Under the pieces are notes generated by a model. It saw only the letters and a program-made list of their open reading frames with translations. It had not been told where the DNA came from and ran no database searches. Positions 1 to 14,113 of a stretch of 14,113 bases of DNA are shown piece after piece. This stretch comes from a virus (taxonomy: Duplodnaviria > Heunggongvirae > Uroviricota > Caudoviricetes). The stretch lies in IMG/VR virus record IMGVR_UViG_2778261687_000004, positions 1 to 14,113 of that record, one strand, 5' to 3'. Each line of letters starts with the position of its first letter. Positions within the stretch are counted from its first letter, which is position 1. The position numbers were made by a program, and so were the translations under genes.

Positions 1-174
1 ATGATTGAACAAATTAACATCGCTCTTGAGCAAAAAGGGTCCGGGAATTTCTCAGCCTGGGTCATTGAAGCCTGCCGCCGGAGACTGTGCTCAGAAAAAA
101 GAGTTTCTTCTGAAGCAAACAAAGAAAAGAGTGACATTACTGAATTGCTCAGAAAACAGGTCAGACCAGATTGA
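1..174 (+). CDS. Small hypothetical protein (57 codons, ATG at window position 1, TGA at 172-174); may be a complete small gene or the 3' end of a longer one (ynfO position)
   Basis: Open frame from position 1 to TGA 172-174 (MIEQINIALEQKGSGNFSAWVIEACRRRL...). Not in the ORF track because it starts at the window edge. Name by synteny only. Confidence 0.45.
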   Translation: MIEQINIALEQKGSGNFSAWVIEACRRRLCSEKRVSSEANKEKSDITELLRKQVRPD

Positions 175-216
175 AGCAATTTAGATAATCGTGCAGACTA
201 CGCCCCCTCATATCAC

Positions 217-642
217 ATGGAAGGTTTATCTATGGATCAGGTAGTCATTTTTAAACAAATATTTGATAAAGTTCGAAACGATTTAAACTATCAATGGTTT
301 TATTCTGAGCTAAAACGTCACAATGTCTCACATTACATTTACTATTTAGCCACAGAGAATGTTCATATTGTATTAAAAAATGATAATACAGTGTTATTAA
401 AGGGCCTAAAAAACATTGTGTCTGTCAAATTTTCAAAGGATAGGCATCTTATAGAAACGACCTCTAATAAGCTGAAATCCAGAGAGATCACATTTCAGGA
501 ATACAGAAGAAACCTTGCTAAAGCAGGAGTTTTTCGGTGGGTTACAAATATCCACGAACAAAAAAGATATTACTATACCTTTGATAATTCATTACTATTT
601 ACTGAAAGCATCCAGAAAACTACACAGATCTTACCACGCTAA
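217..642 (+). CDS. ydfO: DUF1398-family prophage protein (YdfO-like); alternative start ATG 232 gives 136 aa
   Basis: 141-aa ORF in the track; sequence and position upstream of gnsB match my memory of the YdfO/YbcV family. Confidence 0.7.
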
Positions 643-650
643 ACCATAAC

Positions 651-679
651 GTCCGGCTTCTCTCACTCCTGAGCCGGAC
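651..679 (+). terminator. Possible stem-loop downstream of ydfO (8-bp stem GTCCGGCT/AGCCGGAC, 13-nt loop), weak U-tract
   Basis: Inverted repeat 651-658 / 672-679 seen directly; the following T-tract is poor, so terminator function is uncertain. Confidence 0.3.
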
Positions 680-793
680 TGCATTGGTTTAATAAAAACC
701 ATCAACAATTGTGATTTAGATATTCGGAACCATTCAAATATAACAAAACCCCGTAAAAACGAGGTTTATGGATAAATTTTATTATTGAATACA

Positions 794-968
794 TCAGATT
801 AAATTAATCTTGACATCATAGCTTTCAAGACCCGTCATTTTTTCCCGTGCGGTAAACTGAATACTGGTAACTTCTTTCCCGGTCTTTTTCTTAAGTTCAA
901 TAATTTTTTTTTGTTATATATTCAGAAATATCTGCTTCTGCTTTTGTTTTTAAGTTTTCAATATTCAT
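794..968 (-). pseudogene. gnsB: GnsA/GnsB-family gene disrupted by a 1-nt frameshift in a T9 homopolymer (plus 904-912)
   Basis: Minus strand ATG at 968 with RBS AGAGGAAA. Translation MNIENLKTKAEADISEYITKK then the frame breaks in the A9 run (TAT TGA). With A8 it reads ...KKIIELKKKTGKEVTSIQFTAREKMTGLESYDVKINLI* (57 aa, GnsB-like). Span is 175 nt, not a multiple of 3. Confidence 0.6.
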
Positions 969-1139
969 CATTTCCTCTTTTAGTCTGTTATGACTTTCCA
1001 GTTACACAGTAAGTCGATTATATGGTGCAAACGTGTAAAAGATAAGATGAAACATCGCAATAATCAACATACGATAGTCTAAATTTTACACAAACAGACA
1101 AAGAGAATTTTCCTGAATTATCAATGCAATAGCATCAAA

Positions 1140-1373
1140 TCAACTCAAGAGCCTTATTGCTGCTTCCAGAATTTCTTCTGAAGTAACATGTCGATCCGCG
1201 GCTACATAAATGACTTTATGATCTCCGGTCAGAGATGGAAACCCTGCGGCCATTACAGTAAGGTGTGTTTTTTCGCCATTTGGATATTCACGCATGATGG
1301 TGTTAACTCCAGTCATCGCTGGCACTACCACTGCTGGTTCAGAGTTAAAAAAAACTATGATTTTTTTCATGAT
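1140..1373 (-). CDS. Hypothetical 77-aa protein at the ynfN position between cspI and gnsB
   Basis: ORF-track entry 1140..1412 begins with TTG; the first ATG is at 1373 (MKKIIVFFNSEPAVVVPAMTGV...). No strong SD. Identity not recognised. Confidence 0.45.
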   Translation of the reverse strand: MMKKIIVFFNSEPAVVVPAMTGVNTIMREYPNGEKTHLTVMAAGFPSLTGDHKVIYVAADRHVTSEEILEAAIRLLS

Positions 1374-1414
1374 GTTACCGTAGTATGTGAGTATCCATCG
1401 AATAGACACCAAGC

Positions 1415-1434
1415 AAAAAAGCTCCCGAAGGAGC
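1415..1434 (-). terminator. Intrinsic terminator for the minus-strand cspI transcript
   Basis: Hairpin GCTCC-CGAA-GGAGC (1421-1434) preceded on plus by A6 (1415-1420), so the minus-strand RNA has the stem followed by U6. Confidence 0.55.
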
Positions 1435-1641
1435 CTTCATTTTCACTTTTTTAAATCCAACGACAGACGGCTGGCATTTAAGTATTGTGAAATATTATCA
1501 AATGTAATCATCATTGATTTACAAAAGATACATTTTGCCCCGAAAGGATTCATGTCAGAAACATCAAAAGATGATGTTCTATACTGGGAACCATGACAAC
1601 ACGGGCATCTAAAGTGAATATGGTTTGTAATATTGTCTACC

Positions 1642-1854
1642 TCAAAGCGCCACTACATGAACAGCGGCAGGACCTTTAGGTCCGTTCTCAATACCAAATT
1701 CAACTTCCTGATTCTCAGTTAATGTTTTGAAATCGTTGCTCTGAATTGCTGAGAAATGGACAAACACATCTTTGCTGCCATCTTTCGGCGTGATGAAACC
1801 AAAACCTTTTTCAGGGTTAAACCATTTCACTAAACCAGTCATTTTGTTAGACAT
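1642..1854 (-). CDS. cspI: Cold-shock protein, CspA family (70 aa)
   Basis: [38 protein letters not shown]... contains the canonical cold-shock domain RNP motifs (KGFGFI, VFVHF). Paralog assignment is by synteny next to the lysis cassette. Confidence 0.88.
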
Positions 1855-2216
1855 AATTATTACCTTTTGAAGAAATTAGCCCTTGGGCAGAATGGTCCGA
1901 AAAAAAATATCAGAGAGAAAAACCAACAAGGAAATCTCAAGAGGTACAAATAATAAAATTATAACAATGACTGCTTCAGATAAATTTGTAACAAACCAGA
2001 ACACCATTAACGCATGATTAACCACCCATAGCAAGGATTACTTTTGTAAAGAAAAACACAGCAATGAAAGAATAGCTTTATTTATTAATAAAACGTGTCA
2101 TTCTGATTAAGACCTTTTATCTTACCCTTAAGATTTCAGGAATTTTGGCTCATGGAAGAGTCCTTTTTATTTAAATTTTACATTCCGCGATGTAAATGTT
2201 CCGATTTAATATTACC

Positions 2217-3239
<1,023 letters not shown>

Positions 3240-3243
<4 letters not shown>

Positions 3244-3551
3244 AGATATTTATGATGAGGACGCTCGTGCTTATTGGCAGGATTTTCAATCTTAAAGGAG
3301 TACTGATGCTGCAGATAAGACTCAACTTTTTCTGACAATTTTTCTGCTACTTCCAGGAAGACTTGCCGGACGCTCCTTCTGGCTGCTGCCTCATAAAACT
3401 CCAGCGCAGCTCCTTCAACACGGTCCATGGCGACATCCAGGTCAAAAATTTCACCGTCAAAGCGTTCTTTGTCCTGTAAGGCTACAGTTACCGTAACTTT
3501 ATTCTCAAAATTACGGACTCCTTTCACAACCAGTTCATAGTCTTGAGTCAT
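3240..3551 (-). CDS. ydfR: DUF1327-family prophage protein (YdfR-like), translationally coupled to the endolysin
   Basis: 103-aa ORF with RBS GAGAGGAG upstream of ATG 3551; its stop overlaps the endolysin start (ATGA 3240-3243). Confidence 0.75.
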
Positions 3552-3555
3552 TGGA

Positions 3556-3771
3556 TTACTCTCCTCTCGCAGCCTTACGCCTGTCTTCTTTAATCTTGAA
3601 ATAAAGATTTGTCAGATACGTCAGCAGGCCAAAAACCAGGCTACCCAGCACACCGATTGCAGCCCACTGTGACGGAGTTACTTTATCGAGTAACTGCAAT
3701 GCCCAGAAACCAGCATTACCCGCCGATGTGCCATAGGCAACACCTGTTGTTAACTTATCCATTGATTTCAT
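3556..3771 (-). CDS. essQ: Class II holin / pinholin (S21-like, 71 aa) with dual-start motif MKSM
   Basis: [71 protein letters not shown] has two TM segments and a charged C-terminus. The longer track ORF (to 3846) has a non-holin-like N-terminal extension. Confidence 0.8.
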
Positions 3772-3990
3772 ATCCTCACCCCGATGTACACGGATGGTGC
3801 AATATGTTTGAAAAGATCGGAGTCTACGGGGTAGTTTTGACAGCACACGTTGTTCTCAACGGCGCTAAAAAAACATACACATTAAAAATGTGGGTAATTA
3901 TTTTGAAAGAAAGTCATATATAAAATAATAATACGAGAAATGTTTTCATATTTAGTGTACTGTATACGGCCATTTATACAGGAAAAGCCT

Positions 3991-4161
3991 ATGTCAGAAC
4001 GTAAAAACTCAAAATCACGCCGTAATTATCTCGTTAAATGTTCCTGCCCAAACTGCACCCAAGAGTCAGAACACAGTTTTTCAAGAGTACAAAAAGGTGC
4101 CCTTTTGATCTGCCCTCATTGCAACAAAGTATTCCAGACAAATCTTAAAGCTGTAGCCTGA
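3991..4161 (+). CDS. ynfU: Small zinc-ribbon protein (56 aa, CxxC...CxxC), YnfU-like
   Basis: ATG 3991 with RBS AGGAAA 5 nt upstream; MSERKNSKSRRNYLVKCSCPNCTQESEHSFSRVQKGALLICPHCNKVFQTNLKAVA carries two CxxC pairs. Symbol from memory of K-12 small-protein annotation, not verified. Confidence 0.6.
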   Translation: MSERKNSKSRRNYLVKCSCPNCTQESEHSFSRVQKGALLICPHCNKVFQTNLKAVA

Positions 4162-4220
4162 TTGATTTTATTAGTAACAAGTATTTTTTATATTTTAATA
4201 ATATATTTAAAGCAGATAAT

Positions 4221-4243
4221 AAAAAACCCGCCTGAGCGGGTTT
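4221..4243. terminator. Bidirectional intrinsic terminator between convergent ynfU-like (+) and cspB (-)
   Basis: A6-CCCGC-CTGA-GCGGG-TTT; on the minus strand the stem is followed by U6. Confidence 0.6.
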
Positions 4244-4524
4244 GAGATTGTGGTGCTTTTTGTGGGAGTCATCCACTTACGCACTTTGTTTTGCCATGCC
4301 AGCAGTTAGCTTCTGCTGTAAAACTATTCATGCAGCAAACCTGCACTTCACCACAATGGTTAGCATACTTTTCCTGATTAAGATTTTGCCAAATATGCTA
4401 GCCATTGTTTCATGTATTGGACCTCCTTACTTTTTATTAAAGAGATCCAATATTCACTACTCTGTCCGTATCTCTACTCAGGCATCAGCCTTCTTCGTTA
4501 TCGTATACAGACGAGCGATGAATT

Positions 4525-4740
4525 TTAATCAGTAATGATGACATTTGCTGCTGCAGGACCTTTAGCACCACTCTCTATAGAGAAGGTAACCTTTTGACCT
4601 TCAAATAAGGTTCGATAATTATCATTCTGAATCGCAGAAAAATGCACAAACACATCTTTACTACCATCAACAGGAGAAATAAAGCCGAAACCTTTATCAG
4701 CGTTAAACCATTTTACTAAACCAGTCATTTTATTTGACAT
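4525..4740 (-). CDS. cspB: Cold-shock protein, CspA family (71 aa)
   Basis: [67 protein letters not shown]...; RBS AAGGAA; long 5' leader. Confidence 0.88.
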
Positions 4741-4757
4741 TCTACATTCCTTAACTT

Positions 4758-4769
4758 GAGCCTTTCGGC
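4758..4769 (-). promoter_or_regulatory. csp 5'-UTR 'upstream box'-like element (GCCGAAAGGCTC) just 5' of the cspB SD
   Basis: Minus strand reads ATGCCGAAAGGCTCAAGTTAAGGAATGTAGA-ATG. This is one mismatch from the cspA-family upstream-box consensus GCCGAAAGGCACA as I recall it. Confidence 0.5.
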
Positions 4770-5040
4770 ATAAATGGTTTGCATAACAGAAACGACTTCG
4801 TACTTAATTGGAGAGACTCAAAGAAGGAATAAGTGAATAACACCTGAAATGAGAACTGCTTTAGTAAACTACTTCGTATATCGTCTGTTCTTCAAACCGA
4901 CGCAATCATTAACGCATAGTTGAACATATGAAGCAATGTTTATTTTAGACATCCAGCCATCTTCAACCCCATCAAAAAACTATAGCTTTCTTCAGGAACG
5001 TGTGTATAGTGCGCCAAGTTATCAGTATTAAGGAATTTTT

Positions 5041-5253
5041 TTGTCCCGTAAAATGACAGGAATTGTCAAAACCTTTGACGGCAAAAGCGGCAAGGGTCTT
5101 ATCACCCCATCCGATGGTCGTATCGATGTCCAGCTTCATGTTTCAGCGCTCAATCTCCGCGATGCAGAAGAAATTACCACCGGATTACGCGTGGAATTTT
5201 GCCGGATAAATGGTCTGCGTGGCCCTTCAGCTGCCAATGTTTACCTTTCATGA
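5041..5253 (+). CDS. cspF: Cold-shock-domain protein of the CspF/CspH subgroup (70 aa), apparent TTG start
   Basis: [70 protein letters not shown]; SD AAGGAA 6 nt upstream of TTG 5041; next ATG is codon 5 (5053). Divergent from cspB. Confidence 0.8.
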
Positions 5254-5307
5254 GCTATATTAAAGCTTTAATTTCAGGCCCCATCGGATCACACATGGAG
5301 AGTTTTT

Positions 5308-5397
5308 ATGAATAACCCCGTCTGTCTTGATGACTGGTTGATTGGCTTTAAAAGCTTATGCTGTACTTTGGCCGTAATAGCTCTGCTAATAATATAA
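5308..5397 (+). CDS. Candidate 29-aa hydrophobic small protein downstream of cspF
   Basis: ATG 5308 preceded by GGAGAG 5 nt upstream; [29 protein letters not shown], with a C-terminal hydrophobic segment. Below the ORF-track length cutoff. Confidence 0.35.
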
Positions 5398-5548
5398 TAA
5401 GCAGACTCATTGTGTTTAGGGACATTGTACTGGAAGAAAACATTTTAAACATCAGGCAAATAACCAAGTCACCAGCTAAATAATAAGTTAACAGACATGA
5501 GTCCCGGGATGAGATTCAACATTACCATTGCCCCATTTAAAGCACAAA

Positions 5549-5569
5549 ACCCGCTCATCAGCGGGTTTT
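5549..5569. terminator. Bidirectional intrinsic terminator between cspF-side (+) and quuQ (-) transcription
   Basis: AAAA-ACCCGCT-CATC-AGCGGGT-TTT: 7-bp GC-rich stem, 4-nt loop, A-tract before and T-tract after. Confidence 0.6.
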
Positions 5570-5674
5570 CTACTTTTTCTTAACGTCGGGTATACAAAGC
5601 CCATCGTTGAAAAAATTTTATCCATATTTTTTGAAAAATGCAAACATCATGTCGCCATCTTCAGCAAAAATCAT

Positions 5675-6427
5675 TTATCTCGTCACCTTCCTCAATTGCG
5701 CTTCCGCGTATGCTTCTTCCTGCCAGCACTTTGTTACCAGTTTACCAATGACGTCCGCATACCCCTTATACCACTGATAATCGGTCAGGTCTGGTACCAG
5801 CTTCTGGACATGACGTCGTGCCAACGTGGTCGGTAAACGACTAAACCGGTTTCCATTACAACGCCCACAAATCTTATATACCGGTACGCCATGAAACCGG
5901 GTTCTTTTTTCATCCAGAACAATCCCTTTACCCTTACACCCTCTGCACGCTGTGCTGGCTTCGCCCTTACCATGGCAATGCTGACATAGTTCCTTCACCC
6001 ATTATTCCTTGATTACAGATTCCCCGCGTCTGTAGTGTTTCACCACTTCGCGCAATACATTATAAAATCCCGTACCTGAACAATGCTCACAGCGAGCCTT
6101 ACTTGCCGCAGACCTGGAGTAATCAGCAAAGGCAAAACTCACGAGGTAAGGAATAATCTGTAACCGGATTTCTTCACTCAATTTGTTCAATGTCGGGTTA
6201 TCCAGTGCCATCGCGTAATTTAGCAGGCCTTCAATCGCAAACTGAGGGTCCTGAACACCAACTTTTGCCAGAAATAAGGCCAACCCAAGTGGTGCTTTCG
6301 ACTGCACCATCCCCTGCGCTGCCATTACATCCGTAATTGTTAAACAACCGGTGCCTGTCGCTGGAGCGTCATCGCTCAATTTTGGAGATTTTGGGGAGTA
6401 ATATTTTGGTAAGGCTTCAAGGTTCAT
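5675..6427 (-). pseudogene. quuQ: Lambdoid late-gene antiterminator Q homolog interrupted by an in-frame TAA (plus 6002-6004)
   Basis: Track ORFs 6002..6457 (N-terminal part) and 5675..5998 (C-terminal part with zinc-finger CxxC...CxxC: CQHCHGKGEASTACRGCKGKG...CGRCNG) are in the same frame, separated only by TAA-TGG. ATG 6427 has RBS GGAGAA; counting the stop as a codon gives 250 codons. Confidence 0.75.
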
Positions 6428-6440
6428 GCTCGTTCTCCAC

Positions 6441-7325
6441 TTACGCCAGTACGCCAATTGCCAGCGCGCGATCGATAAAACGAAATATCAGCTCCAGTTG
6501 AGAGCCATACTTATCTTCAAATGCCACTGTATCCGTATGCAGCTCGTTGTGATGCTTTCTGCACAAAGGCAACACAAAGAGATCATGTGCTTTTGTTCCC
6601 ATTCCGCCCTGCCCGTGACCAATCAGATGATGCGGATCGTCGGCTGGCATACCGCAGCAAGCACACGGCTGTGTCTTAACCCAACGTGTGTATTTCTCCT
6701 TAACCCAGCGGCGACGTTTAGGCAGCTTCATGAAAGATTCCGGAGACTCTGGATCAACGGTGATGCTTACCACCGTCTTTTCCTGTGGTGATTTTTGTTG
6801 CTGGTGGGCGTAAGGCAACGGTGCAAGATTTTTTGTGCGTTGTTTCAATATGCTGGTGGCGGTCTGCTCTCCCGGTACGATGTCGCTTTCGCGGTACACC
6901 GAGCAGATTTTTTCCGCTGGTAATCCCAGCGAACGACGCGATACAGCCTCAGGTAGTGCATCCACCACCTGATTGCAGACCGCCCACCAGGATAATTCAG
7001 CCAAAGATAATTCCCGCTCCTGCGTACCGCTTATTGCGTGACGGATGACGTCAATCACCCATGCTGTCAGATTTTGTTGAGCAAGCAGCTCCAGTGATTC
7101 CGATGTCTGGTCACGCAGTTGGTTGTCGCAGTGCCAGCACAACACCATTGCGCCGGTACCATAACGGTGAATGACTGTTTCAGTGTGATGGTAATCGCCA
7201 TTAGGCCACTGGCAGGATGTAACATGACGTAATAGCCAGTCGGACAATGCGCCAACCCGCGCCTGCGGTAAGAATGAATCAGCCATTCGGCCTGTTCTGC
7301 AGTGCATGGAGGGTGCTGGAACCAT
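6441..7325 (-). CDS. ydfU: DUF968-family prophage protein with C-terminal HNH/zinc-finger-like motif (YdfU-like); probably the 3' portion of a frameshifted gene
   Basis: 294-aa ORF; C-terminus CACCGMPADDPHHLIGHGQGGMGTKAHDLFVLPLCRKHHNELH. Its ATG is immediately preceded by an in-frame TGA and has no SD. Confidence 0.8.
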   Translation of the reverse strand: MVPAPSMHCRTGRMADSFLPQARVGALSDWLLRHVTSCQWPNGDYHHTETVIHRYGTGAMVLCWHCDNQLRDQTSESLELLAQQNLTAWVIDVIRHAISGTQERELSLAELSWWAVCNQVVDALPEAVSRRSLGLPAEKICSVYRESDIVPGEQTATSILKQRTKNLAPLPYAHQQQKSPQEKTVVSITVDPESPESFMKLPKRRRWVKEKYTRWVKTQPCACCGMPADDPHHLIGHGQGGMGTKAHDLFVLPLCRKHHNELHTDTVAFEDKYGSQLELIFRFIDRALAIGVLA

Positions 7326-7414
7326 TCAGACTTGAATGCGTGAGAATACCGCCCGTGCGTGCAGGCAAGAACGGGCGAATTATCAGAATTGTAATATTTT
7401 GCGTTGCGTGCCAT
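7067..7414 (-). CDS. ORF with good RBS that overlaps ydfU in another frame; likely the true 5' end of ydfU (frameshift near 7250-7260) or, less likely, a separate overlapping gene
   Basis: ATG 7414 preceded by CCGGAGAAAACCG. The first ~50 aa look protein-like (MARNAKYYNSDNSPVLACTHGRYSHAFKSEWFQHPPCTAEQAEWLIHSY...); the remainder is low-complexity (C/W/T-rich) while the ydfU frame becomes protein-like at the same point. Confidence 0.35.
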   Translation of the reverse strand: MARNAKYYNSDNSPVLACTHGRYSHAFKSEWFQHPPCTAEQAEWLIHSYRRRGLAHCPTGYYVMLHPASGLMAITITLKQSFTVMVPAQWCCAGTATTNCVTRHRNHWSCLLNKI

Positions 7415-7752
7415 CGGTTTTCTCCGGTGGCACGGTGTTACTCAGCGGGAGTTCAGCCCCGCGCAAGATTGTAGATGAGTTTATTCTCCTGAAAAAGCAG
7501 AAAAGCCAGCTTTTATTCCGATCTCTTTCAATGCCTGTAATGAAGTGACAAACTCACCTTCGCGCAAGATAAATCCGTCCGTGACCTGACCTGTCGATAA
7601 AGGAACGTAACACGTTTTATGCAACACCCGCATGCGGCAGAAAATTATTGCCGAACGTTTACCCCTGTCAACAAGCTTTACTTTCTGAGGCGCGCCAGCC
7701 CGCGAGGAAAACAATCTGAACATCAAACAATTAATGACACAAGAAATACGAT

Positions 7753-7779
7753 TAAAGATTTTTTTGTGCATGCCGATAG
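7753..7779 (+). promoter_or_regulatory. Sigma28 (FliA) class promoter for flxA
   Basis: TAAAGATT (7753-7760), 11-nt spacer, GCCGATAG (7772-7779), matching the sigma28 consensus TAAAGTTT-N11-GCCGATAA; lies 24 nt upstream of the flxA ATG. Confidence 0.65.
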
Positions 7780-7802
7780 TGCTTTTTTAAAAGGAGAAAT
7801 CT

Positions 7803-8135
7803 ATGTCTGTCACAATTCAGGGAAATACCTCAACCGTTATTTCAAACAACTCCGCCCCGGAAGGAACATCAGAAATAGCCAAAATCACAAGACAAATTCA
7901 GGTGCTGACTGAAAAGCTTGGGAAAATCTCATCGGAAGAGGGGATGACGACACAGCAGAAAAAAGAAATGGCTGCATTGGTACAGAAGCAAATTGAAAGC
8001 CTCTGGGCTCAACTGGAGCAGTTGTTAAGGCAGCAGGCAGAGAAAAAGAATGAAGACGCGACAGTTCAGCCTGATAAAAAAGAAGAGAAAAAAGACGATA
8101 CAAATACCGCTGGCACCATTGATATTTACGTCTAA
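7803..8135 (+). CDS. flxA: FliA-regulated prophage protein FlxA (110 aa)
   Basis: MSVTIQGNTSTVISNNSAPEGTSEIAKITRQIQVLTEKLGKISSEEG...; RBS AAGGAG; sigma28 promoter upstream. Recognised from memory of FlxA. Confidence 0.85.
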   Translation: MSVTIQGNTSTVISNNSAPEGTSEIAKITRQIQVLTEKLGKISSEEGMTTQQKKEMAALVQKQIESLWAQLEQLLRQQAEKKNEDATVQPDKKEEKKDDTNTAGTIDIYV

Positions 8136-8149
8136 GTGACAGCCGTATT

Positions 8150-8172
8150 GTGGCCCTCATCGGGCCACTTTT
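8150..8172 (+). terminator. Intrinsic terminator of flxA
   Basis: GTGGCCC-TCATC-GGGCCAC followed by TTTT, 15 nt after the flxA stop. Confidence 0.7.
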
Positions 8173-8571
8173 CGCCATCAGCCTTTTCTTTAAAGACATA
8201 TTATCTTTGTATCATTTCTGATAGTTAACATTACAAGATATAAGTAATGGACGCACTCCCAATTAGTCTATTTAAATCGCCACGAGTTTAACTGACAACC
8301 CATGATCAATTATGAATTGCAACTATTTCTGTAGTCACTTTTGTGGGGACAGTCCACAAAACTGCCAACTTCCGCTTCTTGCTCTTAGCGGACATTAGCA
8401 TAGGCTATTTACCATAACGCCTCATTACGCGCACCGCCCAGACTGACTCAGCGCGTTTCTGGCATATCCCCGGTAAAACAAGTAACAAACCACCCGAAAA
8501 TGAACACCAGAAACGCGACTTAAGAATCTACCCTATGAATGGATATGCACTCAACCGAATCGATCTTGGTT

Positions 8572-9885
8572 TCAATCTTTTTTATCGGGATCAGGCTTCT
8601 TTTTAGGTAACTTCGGGGGCTTAACTTGCTGATGACTTTGCGTTCGGCGCGTAAGCCAGGGATGGTCAGCTTTAGGTTTAACATAGTATTTTGAGCGTAA
8701 ATCAATACGGGCATTATCCACTCGTTCATGGACACTCTTTTCATCATCCAGTGGTATAGGCTCCGGGCCATCAACATACTTTTCCCAGCCCAGCGCTTTC
8801 CCGTCATACAGAACGTTAATTTCACCGTCAAAGTTCTCGCATACAGTAACAACCGAATGCCTAAGTCGATATCCCCGGCCCTCACTGCGTACCTGAAACG
8901 CACTGCTTTTGTACTGGAAAGTGAGATTTTTAGACAGAACGCGCTTCGCCTGTAGGCTGAAGATATAACCCAGTTCCTCTTCAGAATGGTGCACATCAAG
9001 ATGAGCATTATCAGTAGTACGAGGCGACGTAGCGAACCGGTTGTTATAGGCTTCAATAAAGGTCGGCAACCATGCATTTGCTGTTTCAATATCACTGATA
9101 TTCTGAAGCCGCATTTCTTTGACCAGCCTGTCCTGTAGTGTCTGATTGGCGCGCTCTACCCGCCCTTTTGCCTGCGGGCTGTTGGCATGGATTGGCTCGA
9201 TGCCCAGTGTCTTTATCGCACGAGTGAACTGGGTCAGCTCACCTTCCCGCTCTGGGTTATTTACCCTGAATATACTGTGTCTATCAGAGTAGAGAGCGAG
9301 CGGTACGCCATGATCATTAAGGTAACCCCGGAGGGTTTCCATGTAAGCCCGGGTTGTTTCAGCAGGCACAAAACGCAACGCCATCAACGCACTGGTGGCA
9401 TCATCAATGAAAACGATCAGTGTACATCTGGGGCCTCGATTTTCAAACCAGTCATGAGGTGAGCCATCAATCTGGATCAGTTCACCGTAAGATGGTCGTC
9501 GCATGCGGCGTTGATATATACGGGCAATTTTACGACGGCGTTCACGCCATAACCCCTCTTCTATCATCCACTTTCTGAGAGTTTCAACGGATAAAGATAA
9601 ACCGTGTATCTCGCGCAATTTTTCGCACGCAAACGTAGGTCCAAAATCAGCGTAACGGCCTTTGAGGAGTGAAATTACTGTTGCTCTGAATTCAGTAGAA
9701 AAGGAATTATTAGGACGCTTTCCACGTCGGTGGGAAACCAGACCAGAAGGCCCTTCATTTCTATACCGTTGCACCAGACGTTTAACCTGCCGAATAGAAA
9801 TGCCAATGCGTGCCGCAGCTTGTTCCTGAATAATCTGAAGTCGGTGGAGTTCCTTATGACTCATCGTAACAGTCTCTTTGATCAT
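8572..9885 (-). CDS. Transposase-like protein, N-terminal HTH plus DDE/rve integrase-core domain and C-terminal extension (437 aa); probably IS481-family-like, family not verified
   Basis: N-terminal HTH (GISIRQVKRLVQRYRNEGPSGLVSHRRGKRPNN); D residues in LIQIDGSPHDWF and VFIDDATS; HANSPQAKGRVERANQTLQDRL resembles the retroviral-integrase-type E motif. RBS TGGGGGAT upstream of ATG 9885. Confidence 0.8.
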   Translation of the reverse strand: MIKETVTMSHKELHRLQIIQEQAAARIGISIRQVKRLVQRYRNEGPSGLVSHRRGKRPNNSFSTEFRATVISLLKGRYADFGPTFACEKLREIHGLSLSVETLRKWMIEEGLWRERRRKIARIYQRRMRRPSYGELIQIDGSPHDWFENRGPRCTLIVFIDDATSALMALRFVPAETTRAYMETLRGYLNDHGVPLALYSDRHSIFRVNNPEREGELTQFTRAIKTLGIEPIHANSPQAKGRVERANQTLQDRLVKEMRLQNISDIETANAWLPTFIEAYNNRFATSPRTTDNAHLDVHHSEEELGYIFSLQAKRVLSKNLTFQYKSSAFQVRSEGRGYRLRHSVVTVCENFDGEINVLYDGKALGWEKYVDGPEPIPLDDEKSVHERVDNARIDLRSKYYVKPKADHPWLTRRTQSHQQVKPPKLPKKKPDPDKKD

Positions 9886-9973
9886 GAAAAATCCCCCAGA
9901 GAATTGTCTGGGGACATTTTAGAATGGTTCAAAGGGGACATTACAGCTTGGTGTTAACAATAGCCTGCTTCTC

Positions 9974-9989
9974 CGTGCCTTTCGGCACG
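9974..9989 (-). other. GNRA-tetraloop hairpin (CGTGCC-GAAA-GGCACG) resembling a csp 'upstream box', followed by SD-like GGAGAAG, with no nearby start codon
   Basis: Minus strand reads ACGTGCCGAAAGGCACGGAGAAGCAGGC; GCCGAAAGGCAC matches the cspA-family upstream-box consensus as I recall it. Confidence 0.4.
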
Positions 9990-10219
9990 TAAGAGGCTAA
10001 CCTACATGTGTCTAGCATGAAATTGGCCTCAGATTAATGTTAAGCGTCTTGCAGGACGCGTAATGTTAACTGGGGCTTTTCTCTATCTGCCGTTGGTGTC
10101 CATGCCCGAGGCAGATAGCCTCAAGCACCCGCAGTCATTCTACTTAACTAAGATTTCCCCGCAAACCGTTTTTGTCCAGCACAGTAAATATCCAACTAAA
10201 CCAATGGAGTTCGCTGTAT

Positions 10220-10399
10220 TTACCGCCAGTATTCAATGCACATGACCGCCATGAACACCCCTAAAAAAAGGGCATTTATATATCCAAATATTAATATCAA
10301 AACATCAACTTTTTCCATATACCTTGCTGTGAAGATGATGGGCATACATGATGCGAACAACCAGAACGCAACAAACAAAAACTGCAATGCGTTTTTCAT
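10220..10399 (-). CDS. Candidate small membrane protein (59 aa, two predicted TM helices)
   Basis: Strong SD AGGAGG 4 nt upstream of ATG 10399; MKNALQFLFVAFWLFASCMPIIFTARYMEKVDVLILIFGYINALFLGVFMAVMCIEYWR. The longer track ORF starts with GTG and lacks a usable SD. Confidence 0.5.
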   Translation of the reverse strand: MKNALQFLFVAFWLFASCMPIIFTARYMEKVDVLILIFGYINALFLGVFMAVMCIEYWR

Positions 10400-11016
10400 T
10401 ATTCCTCCTACAATCAATGTGCAATTACATTTAAACACACCTCAATTTGGCCGGACATATAAATATCTAAACCAGAAAAAATCACTTACATAGCGTTACA
10501 AACTCTTTAGTCTAAAGGTTCATCGTAAAACATTCCCCATACTTATCAGTCCGTTCCGCGCCAGGTAGCTCATTGCCTTATCTGGCAACCTGTAATCAGG
10601 TTTCCGCTTTTTCAGTTGGCTGGTCGTTTAACCGACATAGTTAATCCATTAATCTAGTTGCCGGATGTTGGTGGATTTTCGCGTTTTAGTTGTTCATAAA
10701 AGTGCACAGCTTTAACCAGTTCTTCTGATGTAACTGGGACTGGTGAGGCAGTGAATAAGGCCTGAATTTGATAGTTCGGCCTGTCGTTACAATCCTCTTT
10801 TTTCGGTACATATTTCCAGTCACCAGACCACTACTTCCCCTGAAAGTCCGTAACGCCTTTTTTCACGTAGCGATATCGCCATGCCACTGGTTTTGCTTGC
10901 CCCGCCGTTTCATGCCCTTCCTGATAATTAATCTCGCTCATTCATCGCCCCACTCATCACAATATGCTTCGACCGGAGTTTTTCCCGCTTCATAGTCATC
11001 ACGCTAGGATTCGACA

Positions 11017-11316
11017 TCAGCAGCACTTCCACCGCGTAGCCTCCATAATTGCAGGCACTAGCGCCGTGAACTTTTCACGCTTATCCCTGGTGTCGATAGC
11101 CTTCCAGCGTTCAAATATCTTCACTCGATTAACGCCAAGCGCTCGCTGATCAATCGCGCCACCTTCATATGTGACACGCTGAACATCGATGTTCGGGCGC
11201 TCTTTCAAAGCCCAGAATGCTTCAGTGATTAATATCGTCGCCTGCTCCTGTGTCATTCCTGGTCGACATATCCAGGCATCCAGAGCCTCACGAGCCTGTT
11301 CAGGAGTGATTTTCAT
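11017..11316 (-). CDS. Hypothetical 99-aa protein immediately downstream of dicC, overlapping it by 17 nt (ydfX position)
   Basis: ORF MKITPEQAREALDAWICRPGMTQEQATILITEAFWALKERPNIDVQRV...; the dicC stop (11300-11302) lies inside it in another frame. Weak SD. Confidence 0.5.
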   Translation of the reverse strand: MKITPEQAREALDAWICRPGMTQEQATILITEAFWALKERPNIDVQRVTYEGGAIDQRALGVNRVKIFERWKAIDTRDKREKFTALVPAIMEATRWKCC

Positions 11317-11530
11317 TGTTCAACCGCCCCGCCCGCTTCGTCTTACGATATTCATCATAAACTTTGGGATCATACTGAAGCTCCCCGCCAGATGCCTCCT
11401 GTAGACGCATCGCGCGACCTTCGGGAACTAAATCCCCTTTCCAGCTATAAAGCGAAGCCAAACGAATACCTGCTGCTTGTGCAAGTTTTGTTTTTGAACC
11501 GAAATACAAAAGAGCGTCAGTTTTAAGCAT
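11300..11530 (-). CDS. dicC: Cro-like repressor of the division-inhibition operon, DicC (76 aa)
   Basis: MLKTDALLYFGSKTKLAQAAGIRLASLYSWKGDL... has an HTH; divergent from dicA across an operator-containing intergenic region; RBS AAGGTG. Confidence 0.85.
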   Translation of the reverse strand: MLKTDALLYFGSKTKLAQAAGIRLASLYSWKGDLVPEGRAMRLQEASGGELQYDPKVYDEYRKTKRAGRLNNENHS

Positions 11531-11544
11531 TTAAAACACCTTTA

Positions 11545-11564
11545 TTGTTAGTCATAACTAACAA
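11545..11564. promoter_or_regulatory. Perfect 20-bp palindromic operator candidate in the dicC-dicA divergent promoter region
   Basis: TTGTTAGT-CATA-ACTAACAA (11545-11564); a second, imperfect related site around 11597-11616 (TTAGCATTAGCTAACTA). Confidence 0.6.
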
Positions 11565-11613
11565 GATAGATGTTAACAAAAACATAGTCAATACGATTTA
11601 GCATTAGCTAACT

Positions 11614-12021
11614 ATGGAAACAAAAAATTTAACTATCGGCGAACGCATCAGGTATCGTCGGAAAAACCTCAAACACACCCAAAGGTCTCTTGCTAAAGCC
11701 CTGAAAATCTCCCATGTGTCTGTATCACAATGGGAACGGGGTGATAGTGAACCTACAGGGAAGAACCTTTTTGCCCTCAGCAAAGTATTGCAATGCTCAC
11801 CAACATGGATTCTATTTGGCGATGAAGACAAGCAACCAACACCACCTGTTGAGAAGCCAGTTGCCTTATCCCCCAAAGAACTAGAGCTCCTTGAGCTGTT
11901 TAATGCACTGCCAGAATCAGAACAGGATACCCAGCTCGCCGAAATGCGAGCTCGAGTAAAAAACTTCAATAAACTCTTTGAAGAATTACTAAAAGCCCGT
12001 CAGCGGACAAATAAAAGATAA
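11614..12021 (+). CDS. dicA: XRE-family HTH repressor DicA (135 aa), cI-like
   Basis: METKNLTIGERIRYRRKNLKHTQRSLAKALKISHVSVSQWERGDSEPTGKNLFALSKVL...: classic lambda-Cro/C1-type HTH. Confidence 0.88.
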   Translation: METKNLTIGERIRYRRKNLKHTQRSLAKALKISHVSVSQWERGDSEPTGKNLFALSKVLQCSPTWILFGDEDKQPTPPVEKPVALSPKELELLELFNALPESEQDTQLAEMRARVKNFNKLFEELLKARQRTNKR

Positions 12022-12187
12022 CATCATCAATGAGTTATCTTTTACCACATCAATTATGTTAGCTATAGCATACAAAATCACTTGACCGATATGTTAGTCA
12101 TGGCTAATCTTGTTTGCATCAACACACCGCACGGTGTTCTCAGCAAACAGTTCCGCTACCCCAGCGTTAAGGGGAAATGAGGTCAGC

Positions 12188-12343
12188 ATGGATACTATCG
12201 ATCTTGGCAACAACGAATCTCTGGTGTACGGCGTGTTTCCAAACCAGGACGGCACGTTCACCGCAATGACGTATACCAAAAGCAAAACGTTTAAAACCGA
12301 AAATGGTGCCCGTCGCTGGCTGGAAAGAAACTCAGGTGAGTGA
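12188..12343 (+). CDS. ydfA: Small prophage protein YdfA (51 aa)
   Basis: ATG 12188 with SD GAGG; MDTIDLGNNESLVYGVFPNQDGTFTAMTYTKSKTFKTENGARRWLERNSGE; first gene of the dicB operon. Confidence 0.75.
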   Translation: MDTIDLGNNESLVYGVFPNQDGTFTAMTYTKSKTFKTENGARRWLERNSGE

Positions 12344-12344
12344 T

Positions 12345-12473
12345 ATGGATTTCGACACAATCATGGAAAAGGCTTACGAAGAATACTTCGAAGGCCTTGC
12401 CGAAGGCGAAGAAGCTCTCAGCTTCAGTGAGTTTAAACAGGCGCTTTCCAGTTCGGCAAAATCTAACGGCTGA
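12345..12473 (+). CDS. ydfB: Small acidic prophage protein YdfB (42 aa)
   Basis: ATG 12345 starts 2 nt after the ydfA stop, with SD AGGTGAG; MDFDTIMEKAYEEYFEGLAEGEEALSFSEFKQALSSSAKSNG*. Below the track cutoff. Confidence 0.65.
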   Translation: MDFDTIMEKAYEEYFEGLAEGEEALSFSEFKQALSSSAKSNG

Positions 12474-12502
12474 TAAGCGAAACAGCACCGCGAGGAATCA
12501 GT

Positions 12503-12721
12503 ATGCAGAAACGAGAACCCGTCATCATCGCGCCAGACTATACCGATGATGAACTTTATGAGTGGATGCGCCAGAAAATTAATGCAGCGCAGGATCTGAA
12601 ATGGGCTAATGAAGCCAGGGCTAAGCAGGCTGAAAATCTGTCCGCTCTGGAGCAGGATATCACCAATCTGGAAAAAGCAGCGGCATTAAGCATTGCCAGA
12701 ATGATTACATACCCGCGTTAG
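12503..12721 (+). CDS. ydfC: Prophage protein YdfC (72 aa)
   Basis: SD GAGGAA 7 nt upstream; MQKREPVIIAPDYTDDELYEWMRQKINAAQDLKWANEARAK... Confidence 0.78.
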   Translation: MQKREPVIIAPDYTDDELYEWMRQKINAAQDLKWANEARAKQAENLSALEQDITNLEKAAALSIARMITYPR

Positions 12722-13061
12722 TAGCTAATCAACAAAGCTAAGGTTAGTAATTAAGGAGTTCTCCACGGGTGAGGTGGAGTGCGTGCGCCGGACACGGGTG
12801 CGCATCCGGAACTGACAGTTTACTGAAAGGATATTTCCCTGAAAAGTCAGACCATAACGCGAAAGCGCACGGCGAGGTAGCTGGTTCATAGATAGCCTGT
12901 CGTTAAATTTTCGTCGACCGTGCGCTTCCGGTTGTGGCAACCCGCGAAATGGCGCGGCGGTAAGTATGGCGGGGTTATTCCTTCCCCGTTGAGGACACCG
13001 GGTTGTCAGGTTGACCATACGCTTAAGTGACAACCCCGCTGCAACGCCCTCTGTTATCAAT

Positions 13062-13114
13062 TTTCTGGTGACGTTTGGCGGTATCAGTTTTACTCCGTGA
13101 CTGCTCTGCCGCCC
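13062..13114 (+). ncRNA. dicF: DicF small regulatory RNA (about 53 nt; ftsZ-targeting), processed from the dicB operon transcript
   Basis: TTTCTGGTGACGTTTGGCGGTATCAGTTTTACTCCGTGACTGCTCTGCCGCCC followed by TTTTT (13115-13119), between ydfC and dicB; recognised from memory of the DicF sequence; preceded by a GC-rich structured region. Confidence 0.8.
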
Positions 13115-13288
13115 TTTTTAAAGTGAATTTTGTGATGTGGTGAATGCGGCTGAGCGCACGCGGAACAGTTAAAACCAAAAACAGTGTTATGGGTGGATTC
13201 TCTGTATCCGGCGTTAATTGTTAACTGGTTAACGTCACCTGGAGGCACCAGGCACTGCATCACAAAATTCATTGTTGAGGACGCGATA

Positions 13289-13477
13289 ATGAAAACGTTA
13301 TTACCAAACGTTAATACGTCTGAAGGTTGTTTTGAAATTGGTGTCACTATCAGTAACCCAGTATTTACTGAAGATGCCATTAACAAGAGAAAACAAGAAC
13401 GGGAGCTATTAAATAAAATATGCATTGTTTCAATGCTGGCTCGTTTACGTCTGATGCCAAAAGGATGTGCACAATGA
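13289..13477 (+). CDS. dicB: Cell-division inhibitor DicB (62 aa)
   Basis: SD GAGGA 7 nt upstream of ATG 13289; MKTLLPNVNTSEGCFEIGVTISNPVFTEDAINKRKQERELLNKICIVSMLARLRLMPKGCAQ. Confidence 0.85.
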   Translation: MKTLLPNVNTSEGCFEIGVTISNPVFTEDAINKRKQERELLNKICIVSMLARLRLMPKGCAQ

Positions 13478-13665
13478 ATTCAGCATTTGTGCTTGTTCTG
13501 ACAGTTTTTCTTGTTTCCGGAGAGCCAGTTGATATTGCAGTCAGTGTTCACAGGACAATGCAGGAGTGTATGACTGCAGCAACCGAACAGAAAATTCCCG
13601 GTAACTGTTACCCGGTCGATAAAGTTATTCACCAGGATAATATCGAAATCCCGGCAGGTCTTTAA
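13474..13665 (+). CDS. ydfD: YdfD (63 aa), small membrane protein reported as a lysis-inducing toxin; start overlaps dicB stop (ATGA)
   Basis: MNSAFVLVLTVFLVSGEPVDIAVSVHRTMQECMTAATEQKIPGNCYPVDKVIHQDNIEIPAGL; N-terminal TM helix. Confidence 0.8.
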   Translation: MNSAFVLVLTVFLVSGEPVDIAVSVHRTMQECMTAATEQKIPGNCYPVDKVIHQDNIEIPAGL

Positions 13666-13757
13666 AACAGTTCCGTAATAAATATCCGGTTTCATTCTTA
13701 TATGCCAGCAATGGCAGGGATTTGTTCATCCTTAAATCTGTCATGAGGTTAAAACAA

Positions 13758-14113
13758 ATGAGTAAAGTCTTTATTTGCGCCGCTATTCCTGACGAACTGG
13801 CAACAAGGGAAGAAGGCGCTGTGGCTGTAGCCACAGCCATTGAAGCTGGCGACGAACGCCGTGCTCGAGCAAAATTTCACTGGCAATTCCTGGAACATTA
13901 TCCGGCTGCTCAGGACTGCGCTTATAAATTTATTGTCTGCGAGGATAAACCTGGCATACCCCGCCCTGCCCTCGATTCATGGGATGCTGAATATATGCAG
14001 GAAAACCGCTGGGATGAGGAGTCTGCTTCTTTTGTCCCGGTTGAGACTGAATCCGATCCGATGAACGTCACTTTTGACAAGCTGGCCCCTGAAGTACAGA
14101 ACGCTGTCATGGT
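13758..14113 (+). CDS. ydfE: YdfE-like prophage protein, 5' portion (runs off the window end)
   Basis: ATG 13758 with SD GAGG; MSKVFICAAIPDELATREEGAVAVATAIEAGDERRARAKFHWQFLEHYPAAQDCAYKF...; no stop before the window end, so absent from the ORF track. Confidence 0.7.
   Translation, partial: MSKVFICAAIPDELATREEGAVAVATAIEAGDERRARAKFHWQFLEHYPAAQDCAYKFIVCEDKPGIPRPALDSWDAEYMQENRWDEESASFVPVETESDPMNVTFDKLAPEVQNAVM

Follow-up and report, generated by a model that had tools for sequence, protein, structure and literature searches.

A 59-codon open reading frame beside a truncated hok/sok locus in a Qin-type prophage is a credible gene for a small membrane protein

Small membrane proteins encoded by prophages are a known kind of gene product, and the locus described here is not a new kind of system. 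Of the described proteins that it resembles, the entericidins, the colicin lysis proteins and Cor/Llp are soluble or amphipathic lipoproteins; the class II holin of phage 21, S21, carries the small-residue ladder GxxxSxxxG on its helix 2; and the Hok/Gef toxin locus hokD/relF of E. coli K-12 lacks its 5' regulatory half. Morons are defined as extra DNA between genes that in related phages are adjacent or have another filling between them, with deviant base composition and a promoter and terminator of their own that permit expression while the prophage is repressed, and gp15 of phage HK97 is a moron-encoded small inner-membrane protein that functions in superinfection exclusion (PMC3594210). 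In addition, prophages show an enrichment of hok genes, as found by a survey of Hok that does not discuss the neighbouring genes (bioRxiv 10.1101/2025.08.07.668861).

Here we analysed a window of 14,113 nucleotides (IMG/VR virus record IMGVR_UViG_2778261687_000004, positions 1 to 14,113), in which a 59-codon ORF lies upstream of a truncated hok/sok locus. We regard this ORF as a credible, uncharacterised small membrane-protein gene belonging to a two-clade family of E. coli/Shigella prophages. On balance, we favour the fuller reading of a true gene that encodes an inner-membrane protein of 59 residues and is carried in an AT-rich cargo cassette of Qin/Rac-type lambdoid prophages between the last nin-region gene and hok/sok.

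The window carries dicC at 11300-11530, DicF at 13063-13114, cspA-type leaders, lysis-gene homologues and homologues of ydfT and ydfU. It is a cryptic lambdoid prophage of E. coli, of the Qin type, and not that of MG1655, which has a deletion of window positions 8756-11036. Compared with fuller Qin prophages (loci L001 and L003), the window itself carries two further deletions, at about 7581-7589 and at 11037-11047. The first has taken out hokD and relBE along with most of ydfV and part of rem. Through the second, the genes for O-like, DUF977, methyltransferase and DUF7167 products have been lost, and a fragment of a YdaT-family gene (YdfX-like, 11017-11316) is now fused to a decayed nin-region gene. 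The ydfT homologue, a Q-antiterminator gene at 5675-6427, contains a nonsense codon at 6002-6004 on the minus strand, where MG1655 has E142, and is thereby split into ORFs of 151 and 107 aa. The features around the 59-codon ORF are as follows.

8572 to 9885, minus strand: 437-aa ISNCY-type transposase ORF of the insertion that truncated hok, with matches to Pfam HTH_32, HTH_29 and rve_3
9959 to 10130, minus strand: truncated hok/sok locus, matching the Rfam sok family RF01794 at 104 bits against a gathering score of 59
10178 to 10519, minus strand: AT-rich variable cargo slot (moron-like cassette), delimited by homology breakpoints, GC content and the other fillings of the slot
10220 to 10399 including the stop codon, minus strand: probable coding sequence of a 59-aa two-helix membrane protein, from the ORF list and sequence, the clade-B alignment and the AlphaFold2 model
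10236 to 10493, plus strand: opposite-strand shadow ORF of 85 aa, judged not to be a gene (no Shine-Dalgarno sequence, stops in clade B, no PHROGs match)
10404 to 10409, minus strand: Shine-Dalgarno sequence AGGAGG, 4 nt ahead of the ATG, read directly from the sequence
10520 to 10941, minus strand: decayed nin-region gene whose protein would end in NGLISMGNVLR, from RefSeq annotation and homology to pPE4 gp23

The ORF runs on the minus strand from an ATG at 10397-10399 to a TAA at 10220-10222, and the spacer AATA (10400-10403) separates the start codon from the AGGAGG hexamer. In this region, the minus strand reads TTGATTGTAGGAGGAATAATG and TTGATTGTAGGAGGAATAATGAAAAAC. The product, MKNALQFLFVAFWLFASCMPIIFTARYMEKVDVLILIFGYINALFLGVFMAVMCIEYWR (59 aa), is the same peptide as in the original prediction, and our reading of the sequence confirms the ATG at 10399 behind AGGAGG that had been proposed for it; the placement of the gene stood as to the ORF itself, with its strand now corrected to minus. 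Across both strands of the 14-kb window, the pattern AGGAGG-N3-8-ATG occurs at two sites against 0.41 expected. The other of these, at 4411-4427 on the minus strand, precedes an 11-codon ORF (MKQWLAYLAKS) located 3' of a cspB-like gene. The common variant of the hexamer ahead of the 59-codon ORF, AGGGGG, retains pairing through G-U, while the homologous ORF of clade B, described below, has a weaker AGGG about 7 nt upstream of its ATG. A Shine-Dalgarno sequence as strong as that in the window should drive efficient translation. Some pipelines call a 72-aa form extended to a GTG; there, GAGG directly abuts the GTG and leaves no usable Shine-Dalgarno spacing, and in clade B the ATG is preceded, 18 nt upstream, by an in-frame stop codon, making the extension unlikely. 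A consensus scan and a laxer hand-written scan, both of them crude, yielded no credible sigma-70-like promoter for the ORF on either strand and no minus-strand terminator for its cassette.

The cassette comprises a 120-nt leader, the ORF and a trailer of about 40 nt. It is bounded by the stop codon (10520-10522) of the decayed nin-region gene, 120 nt upstream of the ORF; this gene is homologous to the C-terminus of pPE4 gp23, and RefSeq annotates an identical sequence in other strains as 'hypothetical protein; frameshifted; internal stop'. In comparisons with related prophages devoid of the ORF, homology stops exactly at 10520 and resumes near the hok promoter, at 10177 (pPE4-type) or at 10154 (Rac 442/2). 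In phage Rac 442/2 the slot is filled by an unrelated gene for an 87-aa soluble protein, and in pPE4 by only 74 nt. The pPE4-type slot of phage vB_Apl-pPE4 (L178, positions 3014-3097) holds a 27-codon single-helix mini-ORF, MTWPEAFTTVGIAMAVALVVYSICRWG, an unrelated small hydrophobic ORF that overlaps the upstream stop codon (ATGA) and lies just ahead of the hok promoter. The GC content is about 33-39% across 10150-10549 (around 35%), as against 45-53% on both sides. Thus, an insert between homologous flanks and a deviant GC content were both found, and a promoter and terminator of its own were not, so that two of the three features of a moron are present. Since neither signal is recognisable, the cassette would probably be transcribed together with the early-right operon, which starts at dicC and is repressed by DicA, reading on into hok/sok. 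The ORF had at first been described as standing alone; it lies instead in a cargo slot, with a decayed gene upstream and the truncated hok/sok locus downstream.

The 5' end of the hok/sok locus is found 89 nt downstream of the ORF. By comparison with the intact hok of phage vB_EcoS-640R1, hok in the window is cut directly after the 'AT' of its ATG (junction 9959/9960); the truncated locus keeps the mok start, the Sok region and the hok promoter, and the toxin gene is gone. RefSeq labels a stretch homologous to the adjoining transposase ORF 'ISNCY family transposase'. The 5' region of hok/sok directly follows the 59-codon ORF in all 84 loci of clade A (the clade of the window) that have enough sequence, and 45 of these, about half, part from the window sequence where the IS begins and therefore lack the ISNCY-type insertion. 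In the window, the transposase ORF at 8572-9885 is uninterrupted. Its last 49 codons are what is known in K-12 as the gene ydfW (49 aa); the remainder was lost in the MG1655 deletion, as were the hok remnant and the 59-aa ORF. Fuller Qin prophages of the ATCC 8739 type have hokD about 3.5 kb beyond this point, behind relBE; the remnant may therefore be the 5' regulatory half missing from K-12 hokD/relF. We also considered the ORF as part of the hok module itself and rejected this, as the hok/sok modules of 933W-type Stx phages start at a point about 47 nt past the ORF stop and have other DNA upstream. The ORF is, moreover, intact where hok has been destroyed, both in this window and in all clade-B copies, and its function therefore does not require Hok.

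The main and decisive evidence for coding comes from comparing these sequences with a second clade. Clade B (P0094/P0099), MRKILMYLCISIWIVISCVPIILTSEYLTEASIMALMFGHANALCIGVFISIIYIECWR, was identified by searching all of 1.84 billion representative proteins with HMMER; it is also 59 aa long and aligns ungapped from end to end at 41% identity (E = 1.2e-8). Clade B is encoded between ttcA plus an integrase fragment and uspF-ompN, in a prophage remnant that occupies the Rac attachment site in strains of B2 type, CFT073 and ST131 among them. Fragments of ydaW and DUF977/lygF lie upstream of it and a 3' hok fragment about 65 nt downstream, and synteny, in the order DUF977 fragment, ORF, hok fragment, is preserved.

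At the DNA level, the ORFs of the two clades are 59% identical without an indel, and they differ at 25, 17 and 31 first, second and third codon positions, respectively. These differences give a pS of 0.72, a pN of 0.34 and a pN/pS of 0.47, with a Jukes-Cantor dN/dS of about 0.19. Of the six frames, that of the 59-codon ORF is the only one open in both clades, and pN/pS is lowest there. Between the clades we could detect no homology in the flanks except for some 20 nt just beyond the stop codon. When neutral evolution was simulated in 200,000 runs of 73 substitutions each, frame, start and stop survived in 0.23% of them. The core of the original prediction was a real gene for a small two-helix membrane protein with a strong ribosome-binding site, and it had looked to tblastn and HMM searches and to whether homologues conserve the frame. 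These searches uncovered a second 59-aa clade with the frame intact, in which length, start and stop are likewise kept at 41% identity, the opposite of a frame that is not conserved, and this conservation in clade B supports the core reading. We thus consider it likely that the 59-codon ORF is a functional coding gene.

Among complete copies, leaving out those truncated by contig ends, the ORF is intact in 154 of 155 from clade A and in all 16 from clade B. The sole exception (L089; CP178302.1, E. coli ECMA0423, 2809-3369) has three 1-nt deletions and a 3-nt insertion in the ORF, its flanks also carry many indels, and the frame breaks probably represent assembly error and not decay. Within the clades, 10 of the 11 substitutions are nonsynonymous (one synonymous and seven nonsynonymous in clade A, none and three in clade B), where about 22% synonymous would be expected under neutrality. 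As a sequence pattern, this appears to fit neutrality rather than strong purifying selection; an excess of nonsynonymous changes is common at very low divergence. Segregating sites number 6 per 180 nt in the ORF and 25 per 300 nt in the non-coding sequence that flanks it, and none of the six common amino-acid polymorphisms lies in any of the 19 alignment columns that are invariant between the clades. Three clade-A polymorphisms, I37M, Y40H and Y57C, correspond to the residue fixed in clade B (I37M and Y40H in 35 loci each), and may have arisen in parallel, at sites that tolerate change, or through an old exchange between the two clades.

Clade A is carried by 1568 (29%) and clade B by 1045 (19%) of 5426 complete E. 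coli genomes. The close homologues, all of them in E. coli or Shigella, share at least 93% identity where they are full length, and by themselves such similar sequences would say little on coding. Across the searches made, the family consists of two clades found in E. coli/Shigella only: a profile search built from both clades found no third, none was seen among the best 80 loci listed from the metagenome and IMG/VR scans, and tblastn against plasmids and phages returned no clade beyond A and B, while a scan of GTDB genomes gave only three loci, L089 among them. Searches with either clade found no match in Pfam, NCBIfam, PHROGs or the PADLOC defence-system models even at E = 10, and Foldseek against BFVD gave no fold match, only non-significant hairpin look-alikes. 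In RefSeq complete genomes, no feature is annotated under the ORF, on either strand, in any of the 60 clade-A or 40 clade-B copies sampled; GenBank and UniRef hold many entries of 59 or 72 aa, named 'hypothetical protein' or 'membrane protein'. A literature search for the peptide strings found neither a mention nor expression data. MG1655 has no clade-A or clade-B copy, and surveys of small proteins in K-12 could therefore not have detected the 59-aa protein.

In line with the hydrophobic two-helix product originally proposed, the 59-aa protein has a GRAVY of 1.27, and AlphaFold2, run on a 10-sequence alignment, predicts a hairpin of two helices (residues 2-24 and 31-58) joined by a loop at 25-30, with a mean pLDDT of 73.5. 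The product probably inserts into the inner membrane as a helical hairpin with both termini in the cytoplasm and the short loop in the periplasm. This topology is favoured because the N-terminus carries positive residues (K2 in clade A, R2-K3 in clade B) and the loop between the helices is net neutral in clade A and acidic in clade B, as the positive-inside rule would have it. The 19 invariant columns include W13, S17, C18, P20, N42, E56, W58 and R59. They form a face on helix 1 (W13 and S17-C18-x-P20-I-I), a second on helix 2 (F38-G39-xx-N42-A43-L44-xx-G47) and a C-terminal patch, E56-x-W58-R59. The pattern of conservation suggests that the helix faces and the C-terminal patch are candidate contact surfaces, for self-association or for binding a host membrane protein, and the face on helix 2 is a ladder of small residues such as mediates helix packing. 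The protein would thus probably work within the membrane, by one or other of these contacts. As to the outcome, we would guess at an accessory function at the level of the membrane, putatively phage exclusion or membrane permeabilisation, and it may also be modulation of a host protein; a role as a toxin or in exclusion is a guess. The likeness to small membrane toxins or phage-exclusion peptides that had been suggested originally was neither borne out nor contradicted: models of Hok, holins, YebO/gp15 and defence systems had no match to the protein, and the scans turned up no antisense RNA and no promoter.

Helix 1 could also be read in another way. The prokaryotic lipobox pattern that we used asks for a Cys 15-35 residues in, after an n-region containing K/R and a hydrophobic h-region. 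With C18 as the Cys, both clades fit this pattern, through L-F-A-S-C at residues 14-18 in the window (about 10346-10360) and I-V-I-S-C in clade B. About 9% of shuffles of helix 1 fit it too, and a lipoprotein is therefore a possible, unproven reading. Instead of forming half of a hairpin, helix 1 would then serve as the signal peptide of a lipoprotein, with cleavage at the invariant S17-C18, and the mature peptide of 42 residues would be anchored in the inner membrane by its N-terminal lipid and its C-terminal helix. Extended to its full form, this reading would make the ORF the founder of an unrecognised family of prophage micro-lipoproteins, membrane effectors of phage exclusion or of controlled permeabilisation that have travelled with hok since the split of Qin- and Rac-type prophages, a proposal that we regard as a long shot.

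Several other explanations of the locus bear on the reading of the ORF as a small membrane-protein gene. The ORF might have arisen by chance, in an AT-rich spacer upstream of hok where a T-rich frame stayed open behind a hexamer resembling a Shine-Dalgarno sequence; the T-richness would then account for the hydrophobic product, and no functional protein would be made. Such an origin is consistent with the one synonymous against ten nonsynonymous changes within clades, with the missing annotation in the RefSeq copies sampled, with scans that found no promoter and searches that found no homologues outside E. coli and Shigella, and with a setting of decaying prophage DNA amid pseudogenes. It is nonetheless unlikely, given that frame, start and stop are kept without an indel at 59% nucleotide identity between flanks that cannot be aligned, that pN/pS is lowest in this frame and neutral retention has a P of about 0.002, that invariance between the clades extends to rare residues (W, C, P, N, E, W, R), and that the ORF is less polymorphic than its flanks. 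The comparison between clades likewise makes it very improbable that the block is a non-coding element, an RNA or cis-regulatory leader of hok/sok in which the ORF is incidental, as it is the ORF and not the leader that is conserved between them. Within clade A, a block of about 300 nt (the ORF and 117 nt upstream) is indeed more conserved than its surroundings and directly adjoins the hok promoter, as such an element might; its fold energies, however, are no better than those of shuffles on either strand (z = -0.57 and -0.14), no Rfam family matches 10220-10520, and hok/sok of Stx phages functions without the block. Least probable of all is that the real gene is the 85-aa ORF on the opposite strand (10236-10493), which is annotated in the phage GenBank records PV340562.1, ON470612.1 and ON470619.1, twice as 'hornerin' and once as 'hypothetical protein'. 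This ORF is the longer of the two, was picked by gene callers in all three records and has a weak terminator-like hairpin about 100 nt downstream (10587-10602, plus strand), although the number of such hairpins equals that expected by chance. No Shine-Dalgarno sequence precedes any of its ATGs, PHROGs holds no match to it, and in clade B its frame (r2) is interrupted by two stops and has a pN/pS of 0.91.

A different question is whether the 59-aa protein, if made, acts as a toxin, either in a type I toxin-antitoxin pair that has gone unrecognised or alongside Hok as a second membrane toxin; such a toxin would be kept silent and, when expressed, would kill by membrane depolarisation. The size and hydrophobicity of the protein suit this reading, as does its linkage to hok in both clades; the conserved small-residue face G39-A43-G47 may point to oligomerisation, and the enrichment of hok in prophages noted above is in keeping with it. 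Yet we found no antisense promoter, structured RNA or Rfam family over the ORF, the protein is predicted to have two helices where a single helix is typical of type I toxins, Stx-phage hok/sok modules occur without the ORF, and the ORF persists in the window and in clade B where hok is destroyed and so does not depend on Hok. Taken together, these observations make a toxin improbable.

If the ORF is translated, it represents a so far uncharacterised family of small membrane proteins in the most studied bacterial species, one that has no model in Pfam, NCBIfam or PHROGs and carries no annotation in any of the RefSeq complete genomes sampled. The ORF also marks a cargo slot of variable content, located directly upstream of hok/sok loci in prophages, that holds different small genes in different phages, and because its contents vary in this way, the slot is a convenient place to seek accessory or defence functions of prophages. 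At a practical level, three phage GenBank records annotate the wrong strand at this position. By itself, the finding opens no long-standing question.

Set against the known systems with which we began, the 59-aa protein shares features with each and differs from each. As with the small lipoproteins (entericidins, colicin lysis proteins, Cor/Llp), a lipobox-type pattern can be fitted to it, with S17-C18 invariant in both clades, as it can to about 9% of shuffles of helix 1; unlike them, its putative mature peptide of 42 residues would itself be a transmembrane helix. With the class II holins and pinholins (S of phage 21, K-12 EssQ; PF04971) it has in common a length of roughly 60-70 residues, two transmembrane helices and a small-residue ladder on helix 2, here G39-A43-G47. 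We nevertheless rejected an S21-type holin: hhalign against the window's own EssQ gave a probability of 0.2%, and the protein has no Pfam match, whereas EssQ hits PF04971 at 4e-34. In addition, its helix 1 is strongly hydrophobic and not SAR-like, there is neither a dual start nor a charged C-terminal tail, and the ORF lies outside the lysis cassette (homologues of essQ, ydfR and rrrQ at about 2710-3846), between the replication/nin genes and hok. The Hok/Gef toxins (hokD/relF, hokW) are likewise small hydrophobic prophage peptides, and the ORF adjoins hok/sok in both clades. The 59-aa protein differs from them in having no match to the Hok family (Pfam, E <= 10) and two predicted helices instead of one; the ORF has neither an overlapping mok-like frame nor an antisense RNA of the Sok kind, and the match to the Rfam sok family lies wholly outside it. 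Finally, the comparison with morons of the HK97 gp15 type shows differences in that the protein has no Pfam match of any kind, including to the YebO family of gp15, that no promoter or terminator belonging to the ORF was found, and that the ORF lies in the early-right/nin region and not in a tail operon, with an exclusion role that is putative. What it shares with these morons is a small membrane protein encoded on an insert of deviant base composition that is present or absent between the same flanks.
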